A DNA stretch of 64,000 nucleotides from Woeseiaceae bacterium. GTDB lineage: Bacteria; Pseudomonadota; Gammaproteobacteria; Steroidobacterales; Woeseiaceae. Below the pieces are notes generated by a model. It searched no databases and was not told the DNA's origin. It saw only the letters and a list, made by a program, of their open reading frames with translations. Shown piece by piece: positions 2,664 to 64,000 of the stretch. Position 1 is the stretch's first letter. Each line of letters begins with the position of its first letter. The stretch lies in NCBI GenBank assembly GCA_036350895.1, contig JAZBNZ010000234.1, positions 5,600 to 69,599 of the forward strand, in the 5' to 3' direction. A program made the position numbers and the translations under genes.

Positions 2664-3797
2664 ATGCCCCGCACGGCGCTCCTGACGCTTGGCCGGCTGC
2701 CGGTCGGCCTCGACATTGCCCGGAGCTTCAGCGCCGCCGGCTGGCGCGTCATTGTCGCCGAGCCCTACGCGATGCATCTCTGCCGCATGAGCCGGTCGGT
2801 GGACCGGTCGGTCCGCGTCACCAGTCCTGCCGCGGACCCGGAAGGCTACCTGCGGGACCTTGCCCGCATCGTCGCCGCCGAGCAGGTCGACCTCGTGATC
2901 CCGGTCTCCGAGGAAACGCTGCGCATCCCGGCACTGCGCGACACGATGCCTCCCGGCACGTGTGTATTTGCGGCGGAAGCGGCGCTGCTACACGAACTCC
3001 ACGACAAGTACCGCTTCACCGAGCGCGCCCGGGCAATCGGTCTCGCCGCCGCGAGGAGCTGGCTCCCCGGCAGCGTGGACACGGCCGCAAGCAGTGGCTA
3101 CGTGATAAAGCCGCGGCGCTCCTGCTCCGGCAGGGGCGTGCGCTTCGCCGCCTCGGACGCCGACGTCCGGGCAGAGACCGGCGATGTCGTCCAGGAGCGC
3201 CTCGTCGGTGACGAGGTCTCGGGCTTCGGCGTCGCCCGCAGCGGTGAGCTCCTGGCCCCGGTGGTCTACCGGAGCCGGGTGTCGTCGGGCAGCGTTGCCG
3301 TCTGCTTCGAACGCGTCGTCGACGATGGCGCGGTGGTCGACTGGATGCGACGTTTCGTGTCGGCCACGGGCTATTCGGGATTCATTGCCTTCGACTTCAT
3401 CGTGGTCGCGGGCCAGCCGGTCGCCATCGAATGCAATCCGCGCGCGACCAGCGGCATCCACTTTCTCGCCGGCGACGCAATCGAGCCGCTGGTAAGCGGC
3501 AATACACCGCCGCAGCGTTTGTACCGCGACGACACGCTGCTGGCCGAGAAATGGTCCTGCTACACGGCCACACTCGGCCGGCTGCGCTCACCGGGCGAGT
3601 TCGCCCATGCCCTCGGACTGTTGTTCCGGTCGAAAGACGTAAGCTGGCGGCGGGCCGATCCGTGGCCGTTCCTGCTGATGCCCGTCAGCACCTTTCGCAT
3701 CATCGCCGACGCAATCCGCACCCGCAGCACGTTTGCCGAAGTCGCGGTTGCGGACGTCGCCTGGCGCGATGCGCCGGACCCGACCCCCATCCCGTGA
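2664..3797 (+). CDS. ATP-grasp superfamily ligase (377 aa), substrate unknown
   Basis: YVIKPRRSCSGRGVRF (ATP-binding Lys / Gly-rich loop) and FIAFDFIVVAGQPVAIECNPRATSG (E-x-N metal-binding motif), arranged as in ATP-grasp enzymes. Divergent from the P450. Confidence 0.8.
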   Translation: MPRTALLTLGRLPVGLDIARSFSAAGWRVIVAEPYAMHLCRMSRSVDRSVRVTSPAADPEGYLRDLARIVAAEQVDLVIPVSEETLRIPALRDTMPPGTCVFAAEAALLHELHDKYRFTERARAIGLAAARSWLPGSVDTAASSGYVIKPRRSCSGRGVRFAASDADVRAETGDVVQERLVGDEVSGFGVARSGELLAPVVYRSRVSSGSVAVCFERVVDDGAVVDWMRRFVSATGYSGFIAFDFIVVAGQPVAIECNPRATSGIHFLAGDAIEPLVSGNTPPQRLYRDDTLLAEKWSCYTATLGRLRSPGEFAHALGLLFRSKDVSWRRADPWPFLLMPVSTFRIIADAIRTRSTFAEVAVADVAWRDAPDPTPIP

Positions 3798-4822
3798 GTC
3801 ACCGTTACCCTGCAGCGCGGCTCTGTCGTGACGAACGGCCCTCCCGGGAGCTCGTGAGCTTTCTCGAAGGCGTCGAGTTCGGCGGGCAGGGCCTGCGTTA
3901 CCGGCGTAAACACCTGCTGCCGGCGCTGGAGCGCCTCGACGATCCGGTCTTCCTCTCTCTTCGTGAAGACGACGCGATCCGCGCCAGCTACGCGCTGACG
4001 GACTCCGCAGCAAGCCTCGACGGCCAACCGCTCGCCGCCGTGTACCGCGGCCTCCTGGCGGTCGACCCGGCCCGGCGCCGCCGCGGGCTCGGCCGACGGC
4101 TGGTAGAGTCCGCCCTGGCTGGAATCGAGGCGCGCAGCGCGGGGCAGCCGTTCCTGTCCTTCGGCCTCATCGAGGCAGAAAACACGGCATCCCTGCGACT
4201 GCTGGAATCGCTGGGGGCAACGGACGTAGGCAAGCTGGAAAGCCGCCTCGTCTACCGGCAATGGCCACGGCGCTCAACGCGACTCGTCGAGCTCGACTCC
4301 GGTCTCGCGGGCGCCTTCGAACGACAGCTCTCGGCACAACGTGGGGACCGCGGTCTCACCCTCCGTGCGTCCGCCCGCTATCCCGCCTACGGGCTCGTCG
4401 ACGGCGGCGACCTGCTGGCTGCGGCCCGGGTCGGCGTTACAACGCTCGATCTCGGTGCGGGCGGCCCGCTGGCCCGCTTCCTGCACCGGAACGCCTACGG
4501 GCGTTTCAGGATGCTCGGCAAGCGTTACAACCGGCGCGCATTTCGTTACCTGACCATCCACGATCCCCTCGTCGGCGATGACGCCGACGCCTGGCCGGGC
4601 TTCCTGCAGGGACTGCTCGCCCACCATGACACGCACATGGCGCTGTTTACGCTCGATGCACGCTCGGACGTCGCCGCCCGCCTCGGCACTGCCGGATTAT
4701 TCGGGCGCTTCGCGAAAACGACGCAGCAAGACCTGGTGCTGGTCGCCAGCGGCTGGAACCTGGGCGACGGGTGGACGGAACGAATCCGGAGCGCGCCCGT
4801 AACGGGCGGCCCGGTGTTCTAG
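3794..4822 (+). CDS. GNAT-family N-acetyltransferase with a second C-terminal domain (342 aa)
   Basis: GNAT motif A in LAVDPARRRRGLGRRLVESAL (R-x-x-G-x-G). About 190 further residues follow, with no motif I recognise. The GTG start at 3794 overlaps the ATP-grasp stop (GTGA). The track ORF 3431..4822 is an upstream extension of the same frame. Confidence 0.75.
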   Translation: MSHRYPAARLCRDERPSRELVSFLEGVEFGGQGLRYRRKHLLPALERLDDPVFLSLREDDAIRASYALTDSAASLDGQPLAAVYRGLLAVDPARRRRGLGRRLVESALAGIEARSAGQPFLSFGLIEAENTASLRLLESLGATDVGKLESRLVYRQWPRRSTRLVELDSGLAGAFERQLSAQRGDRGLTLRASARYPAYGLVDGGDLLAAARVGVTTLDLGAGGPLARFLHRNAYGRFRMLGKRYNRRAFRYLTIHDPLVGDDADAWPGFLQGLLAHHDTHMALFTLDARSDVAARLGTAGLFGRFAKTTQQDLVLVASGWNLGDGWTERIRSAPVTGGPVF

Positions 4823-4850: not shown

Positions 4851-4890
4851 GCGCCGGCCGCCACGTCGGGGAGATGCAGGCGGCCGGCGC
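4851..4890. terminator. Perfect 12-bp GC stem-loop between the convergent GNAT and pufC genes (possible bidirectional terminator or 3'-end stabiliser; no U-tract)
   Basis: GCGCCGGCCGCC (4851-4862), a 16-nt loop, then GGCGGCCGGCGC (4879-4890). It sits in the 88-nt gap between the two stop codons. Confidence 0.5.
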
Positions 4891-7844: not shown

Positions 7845-8057
7845 TCAAACCCTGTAGATGTCGCGAGACTGCAGGGCCGCAGGTTCGACCAATGTGGTCG
7901 GTGCTACGACGTCTGCCGCTGCGCGCGGGCCTTCGATCCAGTTGAAACGATCAGTGCTCAACAAGATGAAGTGAATCAACAGAGCCAGGACGAGAAGAAA
8001 GACCGCCATGCCGACCATTACTCGGCGTGGGTCGAAAATTAACCAAATTCTCCACAT
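7845..8057 (-). CDS. pufA: Light-harvesting 1 alpha polypeptide
   Basis: [12 protein letters not shown]...[15 protein letters not shown]: LH alpha fold with the BChl-ligand His in a single TM helix. Follows pufB. Confidence 0.93.
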
Positions 8058-8069
8058 GATCCTTTCTCC

Positions 8070-8288
8070 TTAACTGAAGCGCGTAATGACGCTGTGGGCG
8101 ACAGCATTCACGCTATCGGTGAGAGCCGCGTACCCTTCAGGTCCGGGGAACCAGGGCCGCCACTGCCACACTAGGAAGTGGGCGATAATGGCGATGACTG
8201 TGAACACGATGAAACCCATCATGAAGAAGCGATGGAATTCCTTAGCTTCTCGTGAACTCAGTCCTGACGTTGAACTACTATCGGACAT
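8070..8288 (-). CDS. pufB: Light-harvesting 1 beta polypeptide
   Basis: ...[34 protein letters not shown]: LH beta signature with both conserved His. GAGGAG Shine-Dalgarno upstream. Confidence 0.93.
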
Positions 8289-8330
8289 TGTTTTTACTCC
8301 TCAACACAAAAGTCGACTTGGTTGCGGTTA

Positions 8331-13685: not shown

Positions 13686-13729
13686 TGTCAGTTTACCCTG
13701 ACTCGTAAGATTGTCAACATTTATTTACA
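13686..13729. promoter_or_regulatory. Pair of PpsR/CrtJ-type operators 8 bp apart, overlapping a putative bchC promoter
   Basis: TGTCAGTTTACCCTGACT (13686-13703; TGT-N12-ACT) and TGTCAACATTTATTTACA (13712-13729; perfect TGT-N12-ACA). On the minus strand the second operator contains TTGACA (-35) and the first contains TAAACT (-10), with a 16-nt spacer. Confidence 0.6.
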
Positions 13730-15786: not shown

Positions 15787-15830
15787 TGTCAACTTAACTT
15801 GTCACCTGTACATGTAAGGTAATGTAGACA
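15787..15830. promoter_or_regulatory. Pair of PpsR/CrtJ-type operators 8 bp apart in the crtE / crtC divergent region
   Basis: TGTCAACTTAACTTGTCA (15787-15804; TGT-N12-TCA) and TGTAAGGTAATGTAGACA (15813-15830; perfect TGT-N12-ACA). The region is AT-rich within a GC-rich genome. Confidence 0.55.
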
Positions 15831-23668: not shown

Positions 23669-24838
23669 TTAGTGGTTGTCTCGTAGAGCTACGGTGCTGT
23701 CCGCGTCGTTCCCGCCATCGGCATTGGCGCCGGAAACCCGGGCGTCCATAGATGGCGCGAAGAGGAACCGCGTAAATGCTTGTGAATTTTCCTGGCCGAA
23801 CGCGCGCAGATCGATCCTGCGGTCTGAGACCGGGTCGAACAGGTAGATCTGGCCGGCATCGGTCTGGCCGACGGTGAACGGCTCCTCGCTGCCGGCATTC
23901 AGCGCGTCGCGGGCCCTGACGAGCCCCCGCAGCGTTGCCCGAACGAAACCGTTCGTGCCGGGTTCCAGCGTATCGACGACGCTGCCGTCGGCTGCGTTTC
24001 GAACGACAACCGAACCGTCCGCCTGGTCCTCGAAATAGAGGTCGACCTGGCTGACGAAAGGCACCGGAGCCGCAGCGTCGGAAGTATCGGTCAGCTGGTT
24101 CCAGGCGACAGCGATCAGCGAGAAGCCGACGAGCGCCACGCCCGCGGCGAGCGGAACGGTCGGGTACGGACGCCAGCGAGGCCTGTCCGCGCCCGTGTCA
24201 CGCTCGGCAGCATCGCCTTCCTGCACGACGCGAACGGCGGGACCGGTTGCCTCGGCGGCCCGGCAAAGAGCGCCGGCCAGCGTCTCGGCCACGCTGCGAG
24301 CATCAGCGATGCCGCGCAGAACCGGTCGCACGCGCAGGAACCGCCACGGTTTGACCATGGGCCAGACCAGCAGCCAGGAGACGCGATTGCCGCGAGCCGG
24401 CAACAGGCTGATGTCACCGCTGTCGTCGCCGTGTAACCTCAGCTCGGCCGACTCGATCAACCTGTAGGGCAGGTTGATCGTGACCGGCAGGGCAACACCG
24501 GTTCGGATCACGACGCGTCGGTCAGTGATCGTGAACAGGCTCGACCGCGCCACCAGGCGCGCATAGCCGGCCACGATCCCGAGGGCCACCAGGGCCAGCA
24601 GGGTATAGCCGGCCGTCGTGCCGATCGCATCACCCACCGGTGTGTTACCGGCTACCGAGAGACCGAACTGCAGGACCAGGAGCGCCCCGAAATACACGGC
24701 CAGCGTCCTGAGCCGGAAGCTGCCGACGGCGAGGCTGCGGAAATCCGGCGCCCCCTGCCATAGCATCGTCTCGTTGTCAGGAAGCGGCTCGGGGATACCG
24801 GGCTCGTGTTCCTGATCGTGTTCGAGCATGTTATTCAA
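23669..24838 (-). CDS. puhB: PuhB-PuhC fusion protein (RC-LH1 assembly factors in one ORF, 389 aa)
   Basis: Residues 1 to about 205 are PuhB-like: two TM helices plus a bPH-type LFTITDRRVVIRTG region. Residues about 225-389 are PuhC-like: a TM helix VPLAAGVALVGFSLIAVAW, then GFVRATLRGLVRARD...LFDPVSDRRIDLRAFGQENSQAF. There is no stop between the two parts. The track start is a TTG overlapping the puhA stop (TTGA); an alternative ATG is at 24829. Confidence 0.75.
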   Translation of the reverse strand: MNNMLEHDQEHEPGIPEPLPDNETMLWQGAPDFRSLAVGSFRLRTLAVYFGALLVLQFGLSVAGNTPVGDAIGTTAGYTLLALVALGIVAGYARLVARSSLFTITDRRVVIRTGVALPVTINLPYRLIESAELRLHGDDSGDISLLPARGNRVSWLLVWPMVKPWRFLRVRPVLRGIADARSVAETLAGALCRAAEATGPAVRVVQEGDAAERDTGADRPRWRPYPTVPLAAGVALVGFSLIAVAWNQLTDTSDAAAPVPFVSQVDLYFEDQADGSVVVRNAADGSVVDTLEPGTNGFVRATLRGLVRARDALNAGSEEPFTVGQTDAGQIYLFDPVSDRRIDLRAFGQENSQAFTRFLFAPSMDARVSGANADGGNDADSTVALRDNH

Positions 24839-36875: not shown

Positions 36876-38264
36876 GTGGTCAAGACGCAATCACCGGATG
36901 TGCTGTCGAACGCGCTGAGCACGGGCATTGCATCGAGGCTCGTACTCGAAGCCAACGATATCTGTCTCGTCATCGACCCGAAGGGCGTCATCCAGGACGT
37001 CTCCCTAGGCTCCGAAGATGCTGCACTGGAGCCGCTCAGGGACTGGATCGGCCAGCAGTGGGTCGACACGGTAACCGTCGAAAGTAAAAATAAAATCAAA
37101 GACTTACTGAACGGTGCCACCAACGCTTCGCGGTGGCGCCAGGTCAACCATGTCATGGCGGAGGGCCTGGACCTCCCTATCTCCTGGAAGACCATGGACC
37201 TCGGCGAAAACGGCGCCGTGCTGGCGGTCGGCCGCAACCTGCGGCAGGTCTCGCAGCTGCAGCAGCGCCTGCTCGACGTCCAGAACTCGCTGGAGCGCGA
37301 CTACGCGCGGCTGAACCAGGCCGAAGTGCGCTACCGGATGCTGTTCTCGATGGCCTCCGAGGCCATACTTTTCGTGGATGCCGACAGCCGCAAGATCGTC
37401 GAGGCGAACCCGGCCGCGGGACGACTCCTCGACAAACCGGCGAGCAAGCTCTTGAACCGGACGTTTCCGCGCGGCTTCACCGACAACAGCAGCGATGCAA
37501 TCGAGGAACTGATGCTCAGGGTGCGCGCCGCCGGCGGCGCGGAGGACCTCATCGTCAAGACCGCGCATAACGACAAGGCGATACGCATCAACGCCGCTCT
37601 CGTGCGTCGCGAAGACGGCCCCTATTTCCTGATCCGGATGCACGCGCCGGAACACGGCGTGCACGACGATCATTCGAACCAGATCCTCGACATCATCAAC
37701 CGCGCGCCCGACGCCTTCGTCGTGACCGATCCGGATGGCCGGATTCGCGCCACCAACCAGGCGTTCCTCAACCTGACGGCCATGGCAACCGTCCTGCAGG
37801 TGGCCAACGAGCCGCTCGACCGCTGGCTCGGCCGAACGGGCGTCGACGTGGCGCTGCTGCTCCGCAACCTGCGCGACCGGAACGAGATTCGCTCCTACGA
37901 TACAACCCTGTACCCCGAGTTCGGCGACCCGCTCGATGTCGAACTCTCGGGCGTATCTGCGCTCGACAGTGATGATCCCTGTCTGGGCTTTATCATTCGC
38001 CGCCGGGTGCAACCGACGACCGCACCGAGCAGCGATGCACCGCAACTGCCGCGCTCCCTCGAGGAGATGACCGAGCTCGTCGGCCGCGTCCCGCTGAAGG
38101 AACTGGTGCGCGAAACGACGGACATCATCGAGCGCATGTGCATCGAGGCTGCCCTCAAGATGTCCGACCAGAGCCGCGCGGGTGCGGCCGAGATGCTCGG
38201 CCTCAGCCGACAGAGCCTCTACGTCAAGCTGCGGCGTTACGGGATCGGCGGCGACGACGACTAG
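36876..38264 (+). CDS. ppsR: Photosynthesis gene repressor PpsR/CrtJ
   Basis: Multiple PAS-like segments and a C-terminal Fis-type HTH (AAEMLGLSRQSLYVKLRRYGI). Position between ppaA and bchG. Confidence 0.88.
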   Translation: MVKTQSPDVLSNALSTGIASRLVLEANDICLVIDPKGVIQDVSLGSEDAALEPLRDWIGQQWVDTVTVESKNKIKDLLNGATNASRWRQVNHVMAEGLDLPISWKTMDLGENGAVLAVGRNLRQVSQLQQRLLDVQNSLERDYARLNQAEVRYRMLFSMASEAILFVDADSRKIVEANPAAGRLLDKPASKLLNRTFPRGFTDNSSDAIEELMLRVRAAGGAEDLIVKTAHNDKAIRINAALVRREDGPYFLIRMHAPEHGVHDDHSNQILDIINRAPDAFVVTDPDGRIRATNQAFLNLTAMATVLQVANEPLDRWLGRTGVDVALLLRNLRDRNEIRSYDTTLYPEFGDPLDVELSGVSALDSDDPCLGFIIRRRVQPTTAPSSDAPQLPRSLEEMTELVGRVPLKELVRETTDIIERMCIEAALKMSDQSRAGAAEMLGLSRQSLYVKLRRYGIGGDDD

Positions 38265-42335: not shown

Positions 42336-42389
42336 GCAGTAAATAATTAGCAGCCGGCGCATACCGGCTCGAGAAAAAAGGGGCTAGTG

Positions 42390-43886
42390 ATGACGGGAAT
42401 AATCGACATTAAGTCATCGGATCAGTCGACGATCGGGTTGAGCGGCCTGGCGGTCTACATACCGCCGTTCAGGGTCAGGCTCGAGGACTGGTGCGAATGG
42501 ACGGGCAGCCCCTGGCAGAAGATCAGCAAGGTCGTCGGCCGAAGTTTCCGCCTGCGGGGACCGGACCAGAGCATGTACACGATGGCGGCGACCGCCGTCA
42601 TGCGCCTGATCGACCAGTACGAACTCGATCCCGCCGAGATCGGCTTCCTGGGCCTCGGCACAGAATCGAGCAGCGACAACTCGGCGGGGGCGATTATCGT
42701 CAAGGGCATGCTGGACCGGGCGCTCACTGAGCGGGGTTCTGCGCCGCTGGCGAGAAACTGCGAGGTGCCCGAGTTCAAGCACGCCTGTCTCGGCGGCGTC
42801 TACGCCATGAAAGGCGCGCTGCGCTATCTCGCCCTCGACGGTCGCGGCAAGAAGGCGATCGTGGTCTGCGCCGACATTGCCGAATACGCACGCGGCAGCA
42901 CCGGTGAACCCACCCAGGGTGCGGGCGCGGTGGCCATGCTGCTCGAGTCCAACCCGACGCTGGCCGCGGTCGATCTCGCCAACTCCGGTTCGGCTTCCGA
43001 CTATCGCATCATGGACTTCCGCAAACCGATGATCCGCTTCTGCGGCCAGGATCGCAGCGAGAGCCATCACATCCAGGATTTCCCCGTCTTCAACGGCAAG
43101 TACTCGACGACCTGCTACATCGACGAGACCCTGCAGGCACTCGAGGACATGTACTCGAAACGCGGCCTCGAGCCGATCGACTATTTGCGGAGCCTGAAGA
43201 ACGTCTTCATGCACCGCCCCTACCGGCGCATGCCGGAAAACGGCTGGGCCGTTGCCTGGCTGTTCGCTCTCGGGCGCGGCTCCCAGCGGGACCGCGAACT
43301 CCTCGGCAGCTACGCCGGTAAATCCGGCATCGAACTCGACGCACTGCTCGCCGAGATGGCCGCCGCGGTCGACGTGCAGGATTTCGCGACGCCGGAAGGC
43401 CTGAACATCGAACCGTATCCGCTGACGATGGCCACCCTGCACGCGTTCCGCCAATCGGAAGACTTCGAGGACAGCGTTCTCTCAAGGCTCGCGCTGGGCG
43501 CCACGGATATCCGGGATCTCGGCAACCTCTATACGGCCGCACTGCCGGCGTGGCTGGCCGCGGGCTTCGAGGAGGCACTCCGCGACGACCTGCCGATAAC
43601 CGGGGACGAGTTGCTGACGATGGGCTACGGCAGCGGCGACGCGGCCGAGGTCATCCCCTTCTACGTTGCCGAAGGCTGGCAGGAAGCCGCCAGCCGGATT
43701 CGCTTCACCGACGCCCTGACCAGGGCCGTCGACCTGACGCGTGAACAGTACGAGGCACTGCACGATGGCCGGCGGGTCACGGACCTCGGCTACGATCCGG
43801 CGGACGAATTCGTCGTCGAACGTGTCGGCCAGAGCGACGACCGGCACTTCCAGGACATCGGCATCGAGTACTACCGCTACGCCTGA
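42390..43886 (+). CDS. Hydroxymethylglutaryl-CoA synthase family protein (498 aa)
   Basis: Blocks align by eye to bacterial MvaS: LGLGTESSSDNSAGA (catalytic Glu), EFKHACLGGV (catalytic Cys), VVCADIAEYARGSTGEPTQGAGAVAMLL, VFMHRPYRRM (His), GNLYTAALPAWL and MGYGSGDAAEV. About 100 aa longer than MvaS. AAGGGG upstream; a GTG at 42387 is an alternative start. Confidence 0.85.
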   Translation: MTGIIDIKSSDQSTIGLSGLAVYIPPFRVRLEDWCEWTGSPWQKISKVVGRSFRLRGPDQSMYTMAATAVMRLIDQYELDPAEIGFLGLGTESSSDNSAGAIIVKGMLDRALTERGSAPLARNCEVPEFKHACLGGVYAMKGALRYLALDGRGKKAIVVCADIAEYARGSTGEPTQGAGAVAMLLESNPTLAAVDLANSGSASDYRIMDFRKPMIRFCGQDRSESHHIQDFPVFNGKYSTTCYIDETLQALEDMYSKRGLEPIDYLRSLKNVFMHRPYRRMPENGWAVAWLFALGRGSQRDRELLGSYAGKSGIELDALLAEMAAAVDVQDFATPEGLNIEPYPLTMATLHAFRQSEDFEDSVLSRLALGATDIRDLGNLYTAALPAWLAAGFEEALRDDLPITGDELLTMGYGSGDAAEVIPFYVAEGWQEAASRIRFTDALTRAVDLTREQYEALHDGRRVTDLGYDPADEFVVERVGQSDDRHFQDIGIEYYRYA

Positions 43887-43906
43887 GCGACGCAGCGCTG
43901 CTTCGC

Positions 43907-44767
43907 CTACAGCAGCCGTGGCTGCTCGGGCACCGGCCAGCGCGGCAGCGCCGGCATGTCTGTCCTCTGCCGGACGCGCTCGTGGAAATCGAGCGCGAGT
44001 GGCGGGCAATGCAGGTTGTTGGGACAGTGGATCATTATCCACGGCAGAAGCCCTGCCCCGATCCAGTCCGCGGTCCGCTCGGCCCACGCATTAAGGTACG
44101 GCTCGTTGGAAACGAGATCCGGGTGCAGTATCAGCCTCACGAACGGCGTGTCGCCGTAGACGCTGTCGAGAACGGGCAAATCGGGCTTTTCGTGCAGGGC
44201 ATCGAGCACTTCCGGGTGCGTCCGGTCGCCCTCGTAGATCGGCCGCGAATCCAGCATGACGCGCCCGGCCCCGTAGCGCTCGAGCCAGGGCTCGAGCAGC
44301 TCGGGCTCGCTGAAGAATACCCGATGCCGCACCTCGACCACGAAGGCATGACGGCCGGCGAGCGCCTCGAAGACCGGCTCGAGGCGCTCGATGGCGATCG
44401 CGTCGACGCTCGCGGGCAACTGCACCAAGAGCGGGCCCAGCAAATCGCCGAGCGGCCGGACGGCCACGAGAAAGCGTTGCAGCTCGCCCAGGTCGGGCCG
44501 GCGCTCGTGGGTAACCCGTCGCGGCAGCTTGAAACAGAAGCGAAAATGACCGGGAACGTCGGCCAGCCAGCGGCGGATCGTCGCCTCCGCGGGCGTGGAG
44601 TAAAAAGTCGTGTTGCCCTCGACCGCGTTGAACACGGCAGCGTAGCTCGACAATCGCGACGGATGATCGACAAAATAGCGGTCCCGCCACCCGGCGAATG
44701 CCCACGCGGGCAGCCCGAGAAAATAGGGCAGGCGGGTCACGGAATGTTGATCGTCGGGAATGTTCAC
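43907..44767 (-). CDS. DUF72 (YecE/UPF0759) family protein
   Basis: ...LGLPAWAFAGWRDRYF...YAAVFNAVEGNTTFYSTP...: the characteristic DUF72 N-terminal pattern. Confidence 0.8.
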   Translation of the reverse strand: MNIPDDQHSVTRLPYFLGLPAWAFAGWRDRYFVDHPSRLSSYAAVFNAVEGNTTFYSTPAEATIRRWLADVPGHFRFCFKLPRRVTHERRPDLGELQRFLVAVRPLGDLLGPLLVQLPASVDAIAIERLEPVFEALAGRHAFVVEVRHRVFFSEPELLEPWLERYGAGRVMLDSRPIYEGDRTHPEVLDALHEKPDLPVLDSVYGDTPFVRLILHPDLVSNEPYLNAWAERTADWIGAGLLPWIMIHCPNNLHCPPLALDFHERVRQRTDMPALPRWPVPEQPRLL

Positions 44768-44818
44768 GGCGCAATGCTGTCCATAACGCGAACTACCCTA
44801 CCGCAAAGTTGACGTCGA

Positions 44819-46360
44819 ATGCTGTTAGCCGAATTGGGCGACGCGTCGCGCGCCGTTGCAGCGACGCGGAGCCGTCTCCGGAAACGTGCCCTGCTCGCCC
44901 GCCTGTTCAGCGACGCCGATCCGGCGAGCGTCGGGCTCGCCGTGAATTACCTGACCGGTACGCTGCCGCAGGGGCGTATCGGTCTCGGCCCGGCGATCGT
45001 CCGCCGCGCGCTGGACGGTATCGACGGCAGCACCGCCGAGCAGGCACTCGATCTCGCCGCGGTCGACCGCGCGTTCAGCACGATCGCGGCGACACGGGGC
45101 AAGGGCGCGGTGGAACAGCGGGAGGCCGTTCTCCGGTCGCTGTTCGAACGCAGCTCGGCCGGCGATCGCGAATTCCTCGCAAGGCTGGTACTCGGCGAAC
45201 TCCGGCAAGGCGCGCTCGAGGCCGTCATCCTCGAAAGCATCGCCGAGGCGAGCGGTCTCGATGACGCCGACATCCGCCGGGCCGCGATGCTGACCGCGGA
45301 CCCGGCTATCGTTGCGACGACGGCGTTCGAGGACGGACTCGAAGGCCTGCGCCGATTCCGGCTGACGCCGCTCGCACCGGTGCGGCCGATGCTGGCACAG
45401 CCCGCCGGCACGCTGGTCGATGCGATAGGGGCGATGCCCGATGACGCCCAGCTCGAGTACAAGCTCGACGGTGCACGCGTCCAGCTACACCGCGACGGCG
45501 ACGCGGTCCGGGTATTCACGCGCCAGCTCAACGACGTCACCGATAACGTGCCCGAGCTCGTGGCCACGGCGCTGGCACTACCGGCCGAACAGCTGATCCT
45601 CGATGGCGAAGCGATCGTGCTGCGCGACGACGGCAGCCCGCAACCCTTCCAGGTCACAATGCGCCGCTTTGGCCGCAAGGCCAGCGACGAACGCGTCCAG
45701 GCCGAGCTGCCGCTGTCCGTGTTCCTGTTCGATTGCCTGTTCGTCGACGGGGAATCGCTGCTCGATCGCCCGCTTCACGAACGCATGAGCGTGCTCGATC
45801 GAATTGCACCCGACATCCGGGTGCCATGTCTCAGGACCGGCGAACCCGCGGCCGCGCATCGCTTCCTGCGCCAGGCGCTGGACGCCGGGCACGAAGGCAT
45901 CATGGTCAAGACGCCGGCGGGCCGCTACGCGGCCGGCAGCCGCGGCGCGGACTGGCTCAAGGTCAAGGAAGCGCACACGCTCGATCTCGTCGTCCTGGCG
46001 GCAGAATGGGGCAGCGGGCGGCGCCGCGGCTGGCTGTCGAACCTGCACCTGGGCGCCCGCGACGGGGACGGTTTCGTCATGCTCGGCAAGACCTTCAAGG
46101 GTCTGACCGACAAGCTGCTCGCATGGCAGACCGGTGCCCTGCTCGAGCGGGAACTCGAGCGCGACGATCACACCGTGCACGTGCAGCCGGAACTGGTCGT
46201 GGAGATCGCCGTCAACGAGATTCAGGCCAGCCCGCACTACCCGGCCGGCATGGCGCTGCGCTTCGCGCGTGTCAAGCGTTACCGCGACGACAAAGCACCC
46301 GCCGAGGCTGATACGATCGAGACCGTACGAGCCCTGTTCAGGCAGCAGAACCCCGAATGA
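44819..46360 (+). CDS. ATP-dependent DNA ligase
   Basis: Adenylation motif I EYKLDGARVQLH (KxDG), motif V-like MVKTPAGRYAAGSRGADWLKVK, and an OB-domain tail. Confidence 0.9.
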   Translation: MLLAELGDASRAVAATRSRLRKRALLARLFSDADPASVGLAVNYLTGTLPQGRIGLGPAIVRRALDGIDGSTAEQALDLAAVDRAFSTIAATRGKGAVEQREAVLRSLFERSSAGDREFLARLVLGELRQGALEAVILESIAEASGLDDADIRRAAMLTADPAIVATTAFEDGLEGLRRFRLTPLAPVRPMLAQPAGTLVDAIGAMPDDAQLEYKLDGARVQLHRDGDAVRVFTRQLNDVTDNVPELVATALALPAEQLILDGEAIVLRDDGSPQPFQVTMRRFGRKASDERVQAELPLSVFLFDCLFVDGESLLDRPLHERMSVLDRIAPDIRVPCLRTGEPAAAHRFLRQALDAGHEGIMVKTPAGRYAAGSRGADWLKVKEAHTLDLVVLAAEWGSGRRRGWLSNLHLGARDGDGFVMLGKTFKGLTDKLLAWQTGALLERELERDDHTVHVQPELVVEIAVNEIQASPHYPAGMALRFARVKRYRDDKAPAEADTIETVRALFRQQNPE

Positions 46361-49300
46361 CGGCATCACGATTCCAGGCGGCCACCAAGCGCTGGTTCGC
46401 CGACAATTTCGCGGCACCCACCGACGTGCAGGTGCGCGGCTGGGAGCACATACTCGGCGGCCATCATGCCTTGCTGGTCGCGCCCACCGGCAGCGGCAAG
46501 ACGCTGGCGGCGTTTCTCGCCGGCATCGACCGCCTGGGCCGCCTGGCGGAGGACGCGGAGCCGGGTGTTCGGCTGCTCTACGTATCGCCGCTCAAGGCGC
46601 TCGTGTACGACATAGAGCGCAACCTGCGTGCCCCGCTGGTCGGCATCACGCGCAGCGCGGAACAGCTCGATCAGGCGTTTCGCCAGCCGAGTGTCGCGAT
46701 CCGCACGGGGGACACGCCGCAGCGGGAGCGTCAGCGCCAGCTCAAGGAACCGGGCGACATTCTCGTCACGACGCCGGAGTCCCTCTTCCTGATGCTCGGT
46801 TCGAAAGTCGCGGAGACGCTGGCGACCGTCGAGACGGTCATCATCGACGAGATACACGCGCTCGCACCGAGCAAGCGCGGCGCGCACCTCGCGCTGTCGC
46901 TGGAGCGCCTCGATGCCCTCGCCGCGCAGCCGGTACAAAGAATCGGCCTGTCCGCGACGGTACGGCCGCTGGACAGCGTCGCACGCTACCTTGGCGGGGA
47001 TCGTGCCGTGGAGATCGTCGACTGCTCGAGGGCGCCCGCGATCGACCTCGAGGTCAGGGTGCCGGTCCCCGACATGGAGGCGCCGCCGAGTCCGTCGCCG
47101 GCACCGCCGGGCGGCTCGATACTGGGCCAGCTGTATTCTCGCGAGGTCGGCACTCCGCAGGGCGAACGCGGCATCTGGCCGTCGATATACCCGCAGCTGC
47201 TCGAGGCCGTGCGGACTCACCGGTCGAGCATCATCTTCGTTAACAGCCGCGGCCTGTGCGAACGCCTCGCCCACAAGCTCAACGAACTGGCCGACGAGGA
47301 GCTGGTCAAGGCGCATCACGGCAGCATTTCTCACGCCCGGCGCGCCGAGATCGAGGAAGGGCTGAAATCGGGCGCGATTCGCGGCATCGTCGCAACGAGC
47401 TCCCTCGAACTCGGGATCGACATGGGCGCCGTCGACCTCGTCATGCTCGTCGAGTCACCGGGGTCGGTCGCGCGCGGGCTGCAGCGCGTCGGCCGCGCCG
47501 GGCACGGCGTCGGCGAGATCAGCAGCGGCCACCTGTATCCGAAGTTCCGCGGCGACCTGCTCGAGAGTGCCGTCGTGGCATCGCGCATGCTGGATGCGGA
47601 AATCGAAGCGATCACGGTGCCGGTCAACCCGCTGGATGTCCTTGCGCAGCAGATCGTCGCGATGTGCTGCCAGGCGCCGCTCACGGTCGACGAGATCGAG
47701 CGTGTCGTCCGGCGCGCCTGGTCCTACCGTGAACTGTCACGCGGTCTCCTCGAGGCCGTGCTCGACATGCTTTCCGGGCACTACCCCTCGACCGATTTCG
47801 CCGATCTCAAGCCGCTACTGTCCTGGAACCGGGCCAACGACACGCTGTCGCCCAGGCGGGGCGCGGCGATGGTAACCCGCATGAACGCGGGCACGATCCC
47901 CGACCGTGGCGCCTACGGCGTCCACCTCGGTGAAGACGGTCCGCGCGTCGGCGAGCTGGACGAGGAAATGGTCTTCGAGACCCGCGCCGGCGACAACATA
48001 ACGCTCGGCGCGAGCACCTGGCGGGTGGAAGCGATCACGCGGGATCGCGTCGTGGTGACGCCGGCGCCGGGTGAACCGGGACGCCTGCCGTTCTGGCGGG
48101 GTGACGGGCCCGGCAGGCCGATCGAGCTCGGCCGCGCCCTGGGCGAGTTTGTCCGCACCCTCGGCGGAATGAGCCAGGCAAAGGCGGAAGCCTGGCTCGC
48201 CGACAACACGCCGCTCGATGCCCTGGCCGCTCGCAACCTCGCCGCTTACGTGAGTGAACAGCAGCGCGAGACCGGGACGCTGCCGACCGACCGGCAGATC
48301 ACCGTCGAGCGCTTCCGGGACGAGCTCGGAGACTGGCGCATCTGCATCCTGACGCCGTTCGGCGCACGCGTGCACGCGCCATGGTCGATGGCGCTGCAGC
48401 GCCTGCTCGCACAGGAGAGCGGCTACGAAATGCAGGTCATGTACACGGACGACGGCATCGTGCTCAGGTTCGCCGACGCCGACGAACTGCCGTCGCTCGA
48501 CCATCTCGTCCCCGACCCGGACAGCGTGGAGGACATGATCATGGAACAGCTGGCCGGCACGTCGCTGTTCGCCGGCCTGTTCCGCGAGAACGCCGTACGC
48601 TCGCTGATCCTGCGGCGCCGCCGGCCCGGCCAGCGCGCGCCGCTCTGGGCACAGCGACTCAAGGCGCAGAACCTGCTGGCGACCGTGCAGAAATACCCGT
48701 CGTTCCCGATCGTCATGGAAACCTACCGGCACGCCATGGCGGACGTATTCGACCTGCCTGCGTTCAAGACACTCCTGAAAGACCTGCGCAGCCGGGCCAT
48801 CCGCATCGACGACGTCGAGACGCGCAGCGCCTCGCCGTTCGCCCGGTCGCTGGTGTTCGCGTATGTCGCCGCGTATCTCTATGAACAGGACGCACCGCTG
48901 GCCGAGCGCAAGGCCCAGGCGCTGACGCTCGACCGGGGGCTGCTCGCCGAACTCCTTGGCCAGGGAGAACTGCGCGACCTGATCGACCCGGCGGTGCTCG
49001 CCGAACTCGAGGAAGACCTCGGCTTCCTGAGCGAGGACTACCGGGCACGGGACGCCGACGACCTGCACGACCAGCTGCGCCGGCTGGGCGACCTGCACGG
49101 CGACGAAGTCGACGCGCGCAGCGACGGCGATTCGGCGGCCTGGCTCCGTTCACTCCTCGACGAGCGGCGGGTCGTCGAGATACCGATCGCCGACGAGCGC
49201 CGCTACATCACCGCCGACGATGCAGGGCTGTATCGCGACGCGCTCGGCATCGCGCCGCCCGCCGGACTCCCCGATTCCTTCCTCGAACCCGTCGACGATG

Positions 49301-50844
49301 CACTGGCCGCGCTGATCCGGCGCTACGCCCGTCACCGGGGCCCTTTCCTGACCTCGGCGGTAGCCGCGCGTTTCGGCCTGAGGCAAGCCCAGGTGCTCCC
49401 CGTACTCCAGGCGCTCGTGACCGCCGGTGAACTCGTACACGGCGAGATTCGTCCCGGGGGCGCCGAGCCCGACTGGTGCGACGCCGAGGTGTTGCGGCGG
49501 CTCAAGCGGCGCAATATCGCGAAGCTGCGGGACGAGGTCGCCGCCGTCGACGGCCGGACGCTCGCGCTGTTCCTGCCGGACTGGCACGGCATCGGCGACC
49601 AGCGGACGGGACTCGGCCCGCTCCGGGAAGCGATCGCGAAACTGCAGGGTCTGCCGCTGTCGTGGACGCTGCTCAATACGACCATCCTGCCTTCGCGCGT
49701 CGCCGGATACCGGGCCGACATGCTGGACACGCTGGCCGCCTCCGGTGAACTCGTCTGGGTCGGCGCCGGGGCCAATGGCAAGAGCGACGGCCGGATTGCG
49801 CTCTACCTCCGGGACCAGGTCCGTGACCTCCTGCCGCGCGGCGAGGCCTACGAGCCACCGAGCCCGCTGCACGATGCGATACTCGACTGCCTCGACGACT
49901 CCGGCGCCTCCTTCAGGATGGAGATCAACGACTGGATCGAAGAGACCCTGCCCGGCACGGCCGACCGGGACATCGATCGGGCAATCTGGGACCTTGTCTG
50001 GGACGGCCAGGTCAGCAACGACACGTTCGCGCCACTCCGGAACCTCGGCCGTTCGAGCGGCCGCCGCCGGCAGTCCCGACTCGCTCCCGTACAGGCATCT
50101 GCCGGCGGCCGCTGGTCCCTGGTCCGCCGGCTGACGCGGCGGACATCGAATGCTACCCGCGAGGCGGTCGCCCGCGCCCGGCTGCTGCTGGACCGTTACG
50201 GCGTCGTGAGCCGCGCGGCCGCGGCGCATGAGAACCTGCCCGGAGGCTGGAGCACGCTGTACAAGGTCTATCGCGAGCTCGAGGAACAGGGCCAGGTTCG
50301 CCGCGGCTATTTCGTGGAAGGCCTTTCGGGTGCCCAGTTCGCGTATGCCGGGGCAGTGGATCGCCTGCGCGGAGCGCGCGACGAGGCGGAGGATCGGGAC
50401 AGGCCCGTCACGGCCGACGACGTCAGGATTCTGGCCGCCAATGATCCGGCCAATCCTTACGGCGCCCAGCTCGACTGGCCCGAAACCGGCAACCCCGACG
50501 TTGCACAGCCGCGGCGAATCAACGGCGCGTGGCTGCTGCTGGTCCGCGGCAGCCCGGCCCTGTATGCCGCCCGCAACGGACGCGCGCTCGCAAGCTTCCC
50601 GTCGACGCTGAGCCGGCTCGACGGGGCGCTCGACGAGGCCATCGAGGCATTGCGGCGCCTGCCCAAAGGCAATCGCAAGAGCCTGCTCGTGATCGAGAAG
50701 ATCGACGGCGTCAACGTGCTCGAGTCGCCCCTCCTGGAGGCCTTCCGTGCGGCTGATTTCGGCATCGACTATCGCGGCCTCATCGACGTGCGGCCACCCG
50801 GCCAGCGGCCGGTGGCGAGGCTTGAGCGCAATGCCCGAGGGTGA
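46357..50844 (+). CDS. lhr: Large helicase-related protein Lhr (SF2 DEAH-type helicase, 1495 aa)
   Basis: Walker A APTGSGKT, DEIH box (VIIDEIHAL), motif VI QRVGRAGH, and a long C-terminal extension as in E. coli Lhr. The ATG overlaps the ligase stop (ATGA). Confidence 0.9.
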   Translation: MTASRFQAATKRWFADNFAAPTDVQVRGWEHILGGHHALLVAPTGSGKTLAAFLAGIDRLGRLAEDAEPGVRLLYVSPLKALVYDIERNLRAPLVGITRSAEQLDQAFRQPSVAIRTGDTPQRERQRQLKEPGDILVTTPESLFLMLGSKVAETLATVETVIIDEIHALAPSKRGAHLALSLERLDALAAQPVQRIGLSATVRPLDSVARYLGGDRAVEIVDCSRAPAIDLEVRVPVPDMEAPPSPSPAPPGGSILGQLYSREVGTPQGERGIWPSIYPQLLEAVRTHRSSIIFVNSRGLCERLAHKLNELADEELVKAHHGSISHARRAEIEEGLKSGAIRGIVATSSLELGIDMGAVDLVMLVESPGSVARGLQRVGRAGHGVGEISSGHLYPKFRGDLLESAVVASRMLDAEIEAITVPVNPLDVLAQQIVAMCCQAPLTVDEIERVVRRAWSYRELSRGLLEAVLDMLSGHYPSTDFADLKPLLSWNRANDTLSPRRGAAMVTRMNAGTIPDRGAYGVHLGEDGPRVGELDEEMVFETRAGDNITLGASTWRVEAITRDRVVVTPAPGEPGRLPFWRGDGPGRPIELGRALGEFVRTLGGMSQAKAEAWLADNTPLDALAARNLAAYVSEQQRETGTLPTDRQITVERFRDELGDWRICILTPFGARVHAPWSMALQRLLAQESGYEMQVMYTDDGIVLRFADADELPSLDHLVPDPDSVEDMIMEQLAGTSLFAGLFRENAVRSLILRRRRPGQRAPLWAQRLKAQNLLATVQKYPSFPIVMETYRHAMADVFDLPAFKTLLKDLRSRAIRIDDVETRSASPFARSLVFAYVAAYLYEQDAPLAERKAQALTLDRGLLAELLGQGELRDLIDPAVLAELEEDLGFLSEDYRARDADDLHDQLRRLGDLHGDEVDARSDGDSAAWLRSLLDERRVVEIPIADERRYITADDAGLYRDALGIAPPAGLPDSFLEPVDDALAALIRRYARHRGPFLTSAVAARFGLRQAQVLPVLQALVTAGELVHGEIRPGGAEPDWCDAEVLRRLKRRNIAKLRDEVAAVDGRTLALFLPDWHGIGDQRTGLGPLREAIAKLQGLPLSWTLLNTTILPSRVAGYRADMLDTLAASGELVWVGAGANGKSDGRIALYLRDQVRDLLPRGEAYEPPSPLHDAILDCLDDSGASFRMEINDWIEETLPGTADRDIDRAIWDLVWDGQVSNDTFAPLRNLGRSSGRRRQSRLAPVQASAGGRWSLVRRLTRRTSNATREAVARARLLLDRYGVVSRAAAAHENLPGGWSTLYKVYRELEEQGQVRRGYFVEGLSGAQFAYAGAVDRLRGARDEAEDRDRPVTADDVRILAANDPANPYGAQLDWPETGNPDVAQPRRINGAWLLLVRGSPALYAARNGRALASFPSTLSRLDGALDEAIEALRRLPKGNRKSLLVIEKIDGVNVLESPLLEAFRAADFGIDYRGLIDVRPPGQRPVARLERNARG

Positions 50845-62900: not shown

Positions 62901-64000
62901 TTGTGCGAGCGCCGCGCCTCCTCGGCGATGTCGGCGAAGCCGTTGACGATCGCATCGTAGAGCGCATCGAAGATCAGGAGGTTCACGAACGTGCTGGTGA
63001 GCGATTCACGCAGGCTCGCGTCGAAGATCACGTCGCGCACCGTCACGTCCGCCGCAGGGATGTGGTCGACGCGTTCGGCGGGGATTTCCTCCGCCCGAGA
63101 GGCCAGCAGGTCGATCAGGCGCCGGAAATTGTATGCCGACGAGGACTTCCAGCGGTTGTAGAGATACAAGCCCAGACGGAAACAGAGATCGACGCGCGCA
63201 TTCTCGAAGTTCCGCTGCGGTTCACCGAGGAGGATCGCCGTGAGCCGGTTACGCTCCTTGTCGAGACCTTCCTTGCGCTGCCGGTAGGTCTTCAGCGCCT
63301 TTGCCAGCGAGTCGTTGTACACGATCCGGTCGGGATCGTGCAGCCAGTTGTCGAAGGCATCGTCGCGAATGGCACGCGTGCGCTCCTCGAGATCGCCGGC
63401 CGGTATCTGCGCGTTGGCGAGACGACCGTAAGTCTCGACGGTCGACGTGCGGATACGGCGATGGAGCCCGATGTAGCGCAGGTACCGGGACGACAGGCCG
63501 AACGCGTCGGGCACCGCACGGCGAGCACCGGCGAACGAGAAGGCCGACATCGACTTGACCGTCTCGAGTTCCGGCGACGGATTCAGGTTGCGCCGCACCG
63601 CCCGTTCGTACTGCCGCAACACGACGGGCTGGTTGGCAACGAAGTTGCGCGTGGCGAGCTCGATAGACTCGATCGCGCTGCAGATCGCCGCCTGCAGCCG
63701 CGCGATATCCGGCGACGGGTCTTCCGGCGCATAGTCGATCACGCCGTCGACGACGCCTTTACCGAGCAGCTCGTAGGAGGACAGGCCGACGTAGCGCGCG
63801 CATTCCTGCCACGACAGGTTGAACTTGCGGGCGATGCTCGCGAGTCCCTTCGGCTGGATCGTGTTGAAGACGCCGCTGCGAACGCACAGCAGCACGTTCG
63901 TCGCCGCCAGCGGTATCGCCCCGCCCGAGTAACCGAGGCCGTAGACGATGCCGACCGTGGCGACCTGGAGGTTGCACATCTCGGCGAGCAGCCGCGAGAT
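59966..64000 (-). CDS. Giant fused biotin-dependent carboxylase (carboxyltransferase AccA-like, long linker, AccD-like, biotin carboxylase, BCCP); the 5' end lies outside the window
   Basis: The reading frame is open through position 64000 (ISRLLAE precedes the track's Met). The AccA-like motif GLGYSGGAIPLA is at the window edge. The AccD-like block is LPLICFVSSGGMQTKEGPGAL...GGSQASF. Biotin carboxylase: GYPVLLKAVHGGGGKGIKVV, YFMEMNTRLQVEHPVTE. The C-terminal biotinyl motif is CQIEAMKMF. Confidence 0.88.
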   Translation of the reverse strand: MSRLLAEMCNLQVATVGIVYGLGYSGGAIPLAATNVLLCVRSGVFNTIQPKGLASIARKFNLSWQECARYVGLSSYELLGKGVVDGVIDYAPEDPSPDIARLQAAICSAIESIELATRNFVANQPVVLRQYERAVRRNLNPSPELETVKSMSAFSFAGARRAVPDAFGLSSRYLRYIGLHRRIRTSTVETYGRLANAQIPAGDLEERTRAIRDDAFDNWLHDPDRIVYNDSLAKALKTYRQRKEGLDKERNRLTAILLGEPQRNFENARVDLCFRLGLYLYNRWKSSSAYNFRRLIDLLASRAEEIPAERVDHIPAADVTVRDVIFDASLRESLTSTFVNLLIFDALYDAIVNGFADIAEEARRSHKISQESLHQLLDSSLASAARQVKGDAETGETGRFLAANADAFSEWIRYFVRFNGRGAFLKDVEEWKRVHFTRLSDALLVLITFMFESLIPDFLKVQEGKGSYDGTIKPTRIGKRKDFWNQLDIAYIDVLVQRVLDSHKARKLTTVEAICDRFFQDFEELDANLMTADPVSFPGFRFSVERALENGQRPCGVVTGTARLAFGPASRVGVLVSNVAFQAGAFDMASSEKLSRLLYECVENRLPLICFVSSGGMQTKEGPGALFAMAVCNDRITRFVRDNDLPVVVFGFGDCTGGSQASFVTHPLVQTYYFSGANMPFAGRVVVPSFLPSQCIVSNYLSTNPGSMRGLVKHPFAETLDQELRAIDPRIPVPTETVEDVIERIFAGALLPEAVDTSAEEPADGRALMGPIKRVLIHARGCTAVKLIRIAKQRNSAVVLVQSDPDMDSVAADMLGEGDELLSLGGQTPDESYLNAMSVFAIAERVGADSLHPGIGFLSENEEFARACRDRHINFVGPWARNMAVMGNKSNAISTAMSHDVPVVPGSHGILTSAEVTAEVAEEIGYPVLLKAVHGGGGKGIKVVRSPDEIRDVFMTVFAEAKSAFGSGDLYLEKFVESLRHIEVQILRDSHGNTKILGLRDCSVQRNNQKVLEESESVMLPADLEQAAYDHARRLADAIDYLGAGTVEFIFDLVNNALYFMEMNTRLQVEHPVTEWTTGISIVDTQFRIAEGESIESMEINRRGYAIEARVTAEKGVRDAAGNIDFVPTPGTLETCVFPEWDDVEVIATIGPGKSVSPFYDSLVAQIIAYGENREDGLRKLKAYLEAVEIKGICTNIPVLTRVLEDEVFVKGEFDTSYLPAFLRRTDTDAMLAEMEATGVSSDATSIEIDGSRELKVLSPQTGIFYATASPSDPPYVKPGDKIGVDKTLCQIEAMKMFTSVSLSSFNGDTELYPADKHYKIVRVNQSNGAQVNTGDLLFVIKPA

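Follow-up and report, generated by a model that had tools for sequence, protein, structure and literature searches.

Within a 64,000-nucleotide (nt) stretch of DNA from a Woeseiaceae bacterium (assembly GCA_036350895.1, contig JAZBNZ010000234.1, positions 5,600 to 69,599; hereafter the window), we found an ATP-grasp ligase gene and a tandem-GNAT acyltransferase gene inside a photosynthesis gene cluster (PGC), and their products are probably the last two enzymes of a carotenoid-tailoring module that builds an undescribed decorated carotenoid. We favour this reading because the constant partner of the pair is a cytochrome P450 located inside carotenoid clusters, and not the reaction-centre genes. 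The module comprises the P450, the ATP-grasp enzyme, a polytopic membrane protein of ~245 amino acids (aa) and, in one lineage, the GNAT. That these proteins together tailor carotenoids is in our judgement an evenly balanced proposition, and the specific chemistry, in which an amide or ester would be formed and then acylated, commands roughly half that confidence. The term ‘undescribed’ is provisional, since we found no published account of a P450/ATP-grasp or ATP-grasp/GNAT pair in a photosynthesis or carotenoid cluster in a searched full-text literature that is incomplete; the P450 mentions in PMC3338782 and PMC10037100 are irrelevant to the module. An earlier note on this DNA, made from its letters alone, is thus partly supported: its proposals of a new PGC module and of a link to the neighbouring P450 hold, whereas its ideas of a role on light-harvesting 1 (LH1) or reaction-centre (RC) polypeptides, and its analogies with Ngg and the Rim enzymes, do not.

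The ATP-grasp/GNAT pair and its gene neighbourhood

Both open reading frames (ORFs) are real genes, as is evident from a GC content at third codon positions (0.85 for the ATP-grasp, 0.80 for the GNAT) similar to that of the neighbouring photosynthesis genes, together with full-length homologues that carry invariant catalytic residues. The ATP-grasp gene occupies positions 2664-3797 of the plus strand (377 aa) and has an ATG start with an AAAGG ribosome-binding site ahead of it. The GNAT gene follows at 3794-4822 (plus strand, 342 aa), its GTG start overlapping the ATP-grasp stop as GTGA, just as the earlier note had read it, and this start position matches an alignment with 24 homologues. Divergent from the pair, on the minus strand, is an operon of the P450 gene (1164-2546, 460 aa; Pfam p450, E = 2.8e-72) and then crtD, encoding a 1-hydroxycarotenoid 3,4-desaturase (1-1167), of which only the 5' part is present since the gene exits the left end of the window. 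These two genes also overlap, the P450 stop and the crtD GTG start sharing GTGA at 1164-1167. With the most plausible P450 start placed at 2546, the divergent spacer that separates the two operons, presumably a bidirectional promoter region, measures 117 bp (2547-2663), the length previously given. The window CrtD is 57% identical (tblastn) to the CrtD of a related locus, L018, which scores 650 bits against the cut-off of 580 on NCBIfam NF045637.

Locus contexts were drawn from four sources, namely exact-protein look-ups, a species-genome scan, a metagenome scan and an annotation of all loci, the last performed with a tblastn panel and hidden Markov models (HMMs), with the GNAT also sought by HMM in all six-frame ORFs. 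The species-genome scan with the GNAT profile returned 7 loci, all from Woeseiaceae or unclassified Pseudomonadota metagenome-assembled genomes (MAGs), and the metagenome scan with the ATP-grasp profile gave at least 563 confirmed matches, from which 80 loci were kept. The resulting survey set holds 96 non-redundant loci, each with an ATP-grasp homologue (39-100% identical). The strongest signal to emerge, and one that bears out the suspected functional link to the P450, is that in 84 of the 96 loci no more than 600 nt separate the ATP-grasp gene from a P450 gene. Nearly all of the other 12 are cut off by contig ends: flanks longer than 1.5 kb on both sides are available only in L016 and L063, and in L063 the P450 is still present at 2.3 kb from the ATP-grasp gene; in L053, where less than 1.5 kb flanks the gene on either side, the membrane-protein gene and crtI are present and a P450 is not. 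Carotenoid genes (crtI, D, B, C, E or F) are found within 12 kb of the ATP-grasp gene in 79 of the 96. The primary ties of the ATP-grasp gene are therefore with the P450 and the membrane protein; carotenoid genes come second, and any link to puf is incidental.

The loci fall into three arrangements. In class A (50 loci) the P450 and ATP-grasp genes are co-directional, in that order, and make up one tight operon: their aligned ends lie a median of 11.5 nt apart, and several pairs overlap. A frequent gene order is crtI, crtD, the ~245-aa membrane protein, P450, ATP-grasp, crtB, crtC, crtE, crtF and bchC-Z. In class B (11 loci) the two genes are convergent, and in class C (22 loci, the window included) the P450 on the minus strand and the ATP-grasp gene on the plus strand are divergent, their aligned ends 76-211 nt apart. 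Every class C locus but one has the tandem GNAT (the exception is L060, whose 1.6-kb contig stops ~190 nt past the ATP-grasp gene), and so does L028, whose contig ends before any P450; in class A and B loci none was found, the HMM search of six-frame ORFs included. Where it does occur the GNAT gene always stands immediately downstream of the ATP-grasp gene, either overlapping it or a few nucleotides away. In a neighbour-joining tree the GNAT-paired ATP-grasp proteins form a single clade, at the base of which branches a 751-aa protein (P0168, locus L103) that is itself a fusion of ATP-grasp_3 and GNAT and adjoins a P450 and a crtD-like gene. Translational coupling, fusion and the single clade together indicate that in one lineage the GNAT extends the ATP-grasp step downstream. 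It is an add-on to the conserved core, which consists of the P450, the ATP-grasp enzyme and the membrane protein.

Some points of the earlier note can be revisited in this light. It had the pair interrupting an otherwise canonical PGC, yet the same arrangement recurs in every related locus and a chance interruption is not supported; nor is this a common housekeeping dyad, as every tandem-GNAT homologue with readable context adjoins ATP-grasp and P450-crtD genes. The note's undescribed PGC-associated module stands in so far as we found no description of it in print, and the neighbourhood survey that it called for shows co-occurrence with crt genes; the tie to puf is not conserved, with pufC a neighbour in only part of one clade and most ATP-grasp homologues lying between crt genes, far from puf. 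In L009, L012, L017, L019 and L029 a hydrolase and an FrhB-like gene are inserted between the GNAT and pufC, and in L018, where the order is membrane protein, crtI, crtD, P450, ATP-grasp and GNAT, there is no puf or bch gene within 10 kb.

This variability weighs on the proposal that the pair modifies RC, LH1 or assembly polypeptides by terminus or side-chain addition followed by N-terminal acylation. The operon does converge on pufC, both here and in many Woeseiaceae-type loci, the termini of PufA (70 aa) and PufB (72-aa ORF) are long in the window, and the best fold match of the GNAT is N-myristoyltransferase (NMT), a protein N-terminal acyltransferase. Even so, the conserved neighbour of the ATP-grasp gene is a P450 among crt genes rather than puf, and 61 loci carry ATP-grasp and P450 genes with no tandem GNAT, usually far from puf. 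Moreover, L010, L018 and L045 possess the full module with no puf gene in the 5.7-10 kb of sequence downstream of the GNAT, in other relatives 2-4 unrelated genes separate the GNAT from pufC, and no RimK, RimI (12.5 bits against 86.4), NMT or graspetide-ligase model was matched. We regard polypeptide modification as very unlikely.

A second alternative is that the module acts on some other hydrophobic carboxylate product of the PGC, either the propionate of a (bacterio)chlorophyllide or a quinone/isoprenoid intermediate. ATP-grasp enzymes require a carboxylate, tetrapyrrole intermediates have free propionates, the module sits inside the PGC, in L013 it lies near ubiE/ubiB, and in several relatives the FrhB/FdhB-like (BciB-like) and hydrolase genes directly follow the GNAT. 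Set against these points, the immediate neighbours are crt genes in the same 79 of 96 loci and bch genes occur only further off, while the P450 shares an operon with crtD and resembles carotene hydroxylases most; on balance a tetrapyrrole or quinone target appears decidedly unlikely.

Some further features of these loci may be recorded. The inserted genes, at L012:10264-13801, L017:11140-13244, L019:11142-13255 and L009:5721-7791, encode an alpha/beta hydrolase and an FrhB/FdhB-like (possibly BciB-type) protein, and the L012 insert additionally contains a small Acetyltransf_3 GNAT and a CPBP/Rce1-like intramembrane protease. Some class A loci have two crtD-like genes, for example L015:4274-5653 and L015:10101-11495 (both minus strand), one beside the membrane protein and P450 and the other in a crtD-crtC pair, so the module-side crtD may be a paralogue with a different specificity.

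The ATP-grasp enzyme

Profile searches, which the earlier note had called for, place both proteins above the gathering scores of their families, the ATP-grasp protein matching Pfam PF02655 (ATP-grasp_3) at 33.5 bits against a cut-off of 23.2. It also gives a full-length alignment to NCBIfam PRK06849 (NF005315, ‘hypothetical protein’) at 221.7 bits against a cut-off of 406, and judged by these scores it is related to that family without being a member. K149, D244, E256, N258 and R260 are invariant across 41 homologues, and an AlphaFold2 (AF2) model of high confidence (predicted local distance difference test, pLDDT, 93.1; predicted template-modelling score, pTM, 0.92) has the three-domain ATP-grasp fold. 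Foldseek ranks PylC closest to this model, followed by PurK, biotin carboxylases and PurT, with E values of 1e-17 to 1e-13. Given the invariant catalytic residues and these nearest structures, the enzyme looks catalytically competent as a carboxylate-activating ligase. The last ~90 residues are specific to the family and conserved (W..R.DPWPFLLMP motif), and the model is helical from approximately residue 296 on.

PylC, the 3-methyl-D-ornithine:L-lysine ligase, is the most informative comparison. The two proteins share the three-domain fold (best Foldseek match, E = 2e-17; template-modelling (TM) score 0.56-0.59), and with PylC and related carboxylate-amine ligases our enzyme has in common the K / E-x-N-x-R catalytic set and probably the acyl-phosphate ligation chemistry. 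They differ in that identity is only ~17%, the NCBIfam PylC model reaches 10.5 bits where its cut-off requires 248, the C-terminal ~90 residues are peculiar to the window family, and the genomic context is one of carotenoid rather than pyrrolysine genes.

The likeness to PylC also belongs to the case for a small soluble metabolite, such as an oxidised and N-acylated dipeptide or amino-acid conjugate serving as sunscreen or osmolyte, whose genes share a location, and perhaps regulation, with those for pigments although the product is no carotenoid derivative. ATP-grasp and GNAT chemistry on amino acids is well established, ATP-grasp homologues at 26-33% identity occur in non-carotenoid clusters resembling those for secondary metabolites (with KAS III, an oxidoreductase, an MBL hydrolase and an F390-synthetase-like enzyme), and the close homologue in L016 is not beside crt genes. 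What a soluble metabolite leaves unexplained is the CYP97-like P450 and its translational coupling to crtD, the position of the module within crt operons in some 80 loci, and the constant polytopic membrane partner; furthermore, the module contains no conserved gene for amino-acid supply or export. Such a product we consider unlikely.

In the plasmid collection we found only distant ATP-grasp homologues, with identities of at most 33%, in unrelated KAS III / F390-synthetase clusters. Those in L020, L021 and L022 (plasmids of Roseateles, Pontibacillus and Paenibacillus) are 29-33% identical and share a recurring cluster of KAS III, ATP-grasp, NAD(P)-oxidoreductase and MBL-fold hydrolase. The F390-synthetase-like enzyme is present in the two Bacillota plasmids, L021 and L022, and a 384-aa GNAT in L022 alone; between this Paenibacillus protein and the tandem GNAT, hhalign detected no relation (probability 0.6%).

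The tandem GNAT

The downstream protein matches Pfam Acetyltransf_1 (24.4 bits against 20.7) and FR47 (26.4 against 22.1) over residues ~55-145 only. The motif A sequence RRRGLGRRL, recognized previously, is present at residues 94-102, with G100 invariant and G98 nearly so. Its homologues are mostly of similar length: a word-indexed search of 5.8 billion proteins returned only 26 clusters, all of ~340 aa, and an exhaustive profile search of 1.84 billion representatives gave 533 matches, 78 of them below 1e-30, nearly all full length at 330-370 aa and one of them the 751-aa fusion described above.

The C-terminal half, which the earlier note had left unexplained, can now be accounted for. The AF2 model (pLDDT 89.6, pTM 0.87) consists of two alpha/beta GNAT-type halves, an N-terminal domain (residues ~9-158) with motif A and a C-terminal GNAT-like domain (~164-342) with no detectable coenzyme A (CoA) motif. 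Its best PDB matches in Foldseek are NMTs (TM 0.59-0.63), followed by the tandem GNATs 4my0 and 7q3a. Because the CoA-binding motif A is confined to the N-terminal half, the model identifies the C-terminal half as a second, degenerate GNAT domain, and the N-terminal domain is the predicted catalytic half. The C-terminal half is nonetheless at least as conserved as the N-terminal half, with R244, R248, D257, H281, D288, G339 and P340 invariant, and by analogy it may shape the acceptor site.

The two-GNAT-folds-per-chain architecture is shared with NMT and with the bacterial tandem GNATs (4my0 and MAB_4324/7q3a), and the polarity is that of NMT, in which the acyl-CoA motif is kept in the N-terminal half and lost from the C-terminal half. 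The extreme C-terminus (GGPV-x) is conserved in both length and sequence and recalls the catalytic C-terminal carboxylate of NMT, a parallel that we treat as a lead and not a test. Unlike NMT, the window protein is bacterial, has an ATP-grasp ligase for a partner and probably acts on a small lipophilic acceptor. Membership of the NMT family proper was considered and rejected, with no Pfam NMT or NMT_C match at E ≤ 1 and identities of 6-10% in the Foldseek alignments.

Two other memberships, suggested by the analogies of the earlier note, were rejected as well. The pair has no RimK match, and the RimI models TIGR01575 and PRK09491 score 12.5 bits against 86.4 and 12.7 against 173. Similarly, no Ngg-like family was matched and no asparagine-synthetase-like (asnO) neighbour of the kind expected for NAGGN synthesis appears in the locus gene lists. 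The bifunctional N-acetylglutaminylglutamine synthetase Ngg does resemble our system in combining GNAT with ATP-grasp, and a fused form exists here too, but the GNAT in question is a 340-aa tandem protein, the fusion P0168 runs ATP-grasp first and GNAT second, and the pair is found with a P450 and crt genes, not in an osmoregulatory context.

The P450 and the membrane protein

The P450 translation contains the haem loop (FGLGPRVCVG), the ExxR motif (ETLR) and the I-helix motif (AGHETT). Its best solved relative is CYP97A3/LUT5, a plant carotene beta-ring hydroxylase (E = 2.9e-53, 184.5 bits, residues 46-442); CYP97C1 also matches, and the next-best family, CYP3A (E = 8e-39), follows fourteen orders of magnitude behind CYP97A3. 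The window protein shares with CYP97A3 and CYP97C1 a genomic association with carotenoid enzymes, and differs from them in being bacterial and of the soluble type and in standing in an acyclic-carotenoid (crtC/D/F) context that has no beta or epsilon ring. Across related loci, identities are 68-85% for the P450, 41-58% for the ATP-grasp enzyme, 33-56% for the GNAT and 82-92% for PufL/PufM.

A lesser similarity of the P450, to the RiPP (ribosomally synthesized and post-translationally modified peptide) P450 model ApyO (1.8e-45, far below its cut-off), could point to a graspetide system resembling that for microviridin, in which an ATP-grasp macrocyclase, a GNAT N-acetyltransferase and P450 tailoring would act on a peptide. 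Microviridin clusters do combine ATP-grasp ligases with a GNAT (MdnB/C/D). In our loci, however, the ATP-grasp protein matches no graspetide model, gaps within the P450/ATP-grasp operons are mostly below 50 nt and in most loci too short for a precursor gene, and a precursor search that was not exhaustive showed no conserved small ORF in the 117-bp spacer. A graspetide system is in our estimation extremely improbable.

The third gene, encoding the ~245-aa polytopic membrane protein, is found within 2.5 kb in 51 of the 96 loci. It belongs to no Pfam or NCBIfam family, has a weak DUF2306 match (E = 1e-3) and is 44-79% identical between lineages. Examples that accompany P450 and ATP-grasp genes are located at L018:2718-3452, L015:5732-6475 and L001:3571-4320 (all minus strand), and in the genome of the window the gene would lie to the left of position 1, outside the window. 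This protein may be the third component of the module. Convergent to it, Woeseiaceae-type loci contain a conserved gene for a small hydrophobic and probably membrane-bound protein of 90-103 aa with the motif GRIVD...NIGAGGSLMLALRA...FH.DL..RW (plus strand; L012:2413-2697, L002:3246-3530, L001:3302-3574, L017:3237-3521 and L018:2418-2729). Just upstream of this small gene in L012 is a ferredoxin-reductase-like gene, a possible redox partner for the P450.

A proposed route to a decorated carotenoid

Gene reality, folds, catalytic motifs, genomic linkage and phylogenetic pattern are directly supported; the substrate class and every chemical step we infer, as follows. The P450 would oxygenate an acyclic carotenoid of the crtC/crtD/crtF (spirilloxanthin-type) pathway, converting a methyl group to an alcohol, aldehyde or carboxylate of the sort seen chemically in rhodopinal and gemmatoxanthin. 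Using ATP and an acyl-phosphate intermediate, the ATP-grasp enzyme might then join the oxygenated carotenoid to an amino-bearing partner, either by turning a carotenoic acid into an amide or by esterifying a carotenoid hydroxyl with an amino acid. For the Woeseiaceae-type clade alone we propose a last step, in which the tandem GNAT would N-acylate the free amine of this conjugate with an acyl-CoA bound by its N-terminal domain, its degenerate C-terminal domain forming the acceptor pocket.

Late decoration of this general kind has precedents in gene order, as the genes for the CrtA ketolase and CrtF methyltransferase of purple bacteria, and for the carotenoid acid enzymes CruH and staphyloxanthin CrtP/CrtQ/CrtO, are likewise located inside crt operons. 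Staphyloxanthin biosynthesis also follows the same logic of methyl oxidation, then conjugation and acylation. None of these pathways, on the other hand, uses a P450 of the window type, an ATP-grasp ligase or a tandem GNAT, and among the NCBIfam carotenoid equivalogs none matched the P450, the ATP-grasp enzyme or the GNAT. The chemical plausibility of the carotenoid route comes from two reports. Gemmatoxanthin is a linear carotenoid bearing formyl and carboxyl groups in the Gemmatimonas RC-dLH complex, for which the oxidizing enzymes are unknown (PMC8342508), and a 2023 review states that the genes with which purple bacteria make rhodopinal, or glycosylate and acylate carotenoids, are unknown (PMC10604819).

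Several considerations weigh against carotenoids as the target. Gene association cannot separate them from other hydrophobic PGC products, and the resemblance of the GNAT to NMT could equally suggest a peptide acceptor. The low identity of the ATP-grasp and GNAT proteins across related loci fits a peripheral tailoring role but also relaxed constraint. In L016 the ATP-grasp homologue stands alone beside Calvin-cycle genes, and all homologues found come from MAGs or metagenomes, with no cultured carrier among them. The proposed product class lacks a chemical precedent, as no amide or aminoacyl ester of a carotenoid is known to us.

The regulatory sequences also belong on this side. Perfect TGT-N12-ACA palindromes of the PpsR/CrtJ type are present at 8289-8306 (upstream of puf), 13712-13729 (bchC/crtF) and 15813-15830 (crtE/crtC); by contrast, no perfect site exists in the 117-bp P450/ATP-grasp spacer, where one site with a single mismatch was found at 2557. 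In the window as a whole such sites number 7 against 4.8 expected, which is not above chance. With no perfect PpsR site in the spacer, co-regulation is not arguable from sequence. A PpsR-like gene (PAS and HTH_8 domains) is located at 36876-38264.

Tentatively, we would extend the carotenoid-tailoring proposal one step further, to a possibility that we rate as distinctly less likely: the trio of P450, ATP-grasp and membrane protein may constitute a widespread and unrecognized branch of carotenoid biosynthesis in the PGCs of proteobacteria. The P450 would be the methyl oxidase behind formyl and carboxyl carotenoids of the rhodopinal and gemmatoxanthin type, the ATP-grasp enzyme would yield the first known ATP-dependent carotenoid conjugates, linked through an amide or an aminoacyl ester, and the NMT-like GNAT would N-acylate these in Woeseiaceae-type phototrophs.

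Intergenic elements

The GNAT gene ends ahead of an 88-bp spacer convergent with pufC that contains the GC-rich hairpin pointed out in the earlier note (4851-4890). Its arms (4851-4862 and 4879-4890) are 12 nt long, 100% complementary and 16 nt apart, and it folds with -45.5 kcal/mol (z = -3.4 against shuffled sequences). Eight related loci have a GC-rich stem-loop in the same spacer with differing sequence and compensatory changes, which argues that it is a conserved structural element. It is likely a bidirectional terminator or a stabilizer of mRNA 3' ends; we found no run of T residues at the stem-loop. A scan for promoter and terminator consensus sequences gave nothing above chance, and the 117-bp divergent spacer holds no sigma-70 consensus match.

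The surrounding photosynthesis gene cluster

The ATP-grasp protein of the window is 100% identical to one that NCBI assigns to a Woeseiaceae MAG. The window contains a full PGC, in which we identified crtD, P450, ATP-grasp, GNAT, pufCMLAB, bchZ and bchY, as well as ORFs at the expected positions of bchX and bchC, crtF, crtE, crtC, crtB, bchO, puhE, acsF, a fused puhBC, puhA, lhaA, the PpsR-like regulator and a second pucC-type gene. The apparent puhB-puhC fusion is a single 389-aa ORF (23669-24838, minus strand) that matches PuhB over residues 8-179 and PuhC over residues 226-359. The PufA and PufB ORFs are at 7845-8057 and 8070-8288 (minus strand) and encode 70 and 72 aa, respectively. PufB continues for ~25 residues beyond its WRPWFPG motif, while the PufB gene calls in relatives are 48 aa; the greater length may represent a C-terminal extension or a difference in stop or gene call. 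Just beyond the PGC, the regions 42387-50844 (plus strand) and 59966-63979 (minus strand) encode an HMG-CoA-synthase-like protein, an ATP-dependent DNA ligase followed by an overlapping 1495-aa Lhr-type helicase, and a 1337-aa ORF that unites carboxyltransferase, biotin carboxylase and biotin-carrier domains.

Implications

The Woeseiaceae are known mainly as sediment chemoheterotrophs, and the window documents genes for bacteriochlorophyll-based phototrophy in this family; no publication linking Woeseiaceae to a photosynthesis gene cluster was found in the searchable full-text literature, which is incomplete. For purple and aerobic anoxygenic phototrophs, annotation of the PGC is considered essentially complete. 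Three conserved genes without an assigned function in its carotenoid section, with at least 563 confirmed metagenomic matches, would be a real gap, and the wide distribution of the module core among uncultured phototrophs makes the finding more interesting than was first stated. The window P450 provides a concrete candidate for the unknown genes behind methyl-oxidized carotenoids such as rhodopinal and gemmatoxanthin (PMC10604819, PMC8342508). The combination of P450, ligase and acyltransferase follows ordinary natural-product logic; what would be new is its use on PGC carotenoids with an ATP-grasp ligase. If true, the action of an ATP-grasp enzyme on a carotenoid would represent new pigment chemistry, and could bear on the anchoring of carotenoids in RC-LH complexes or their exclusion from them.

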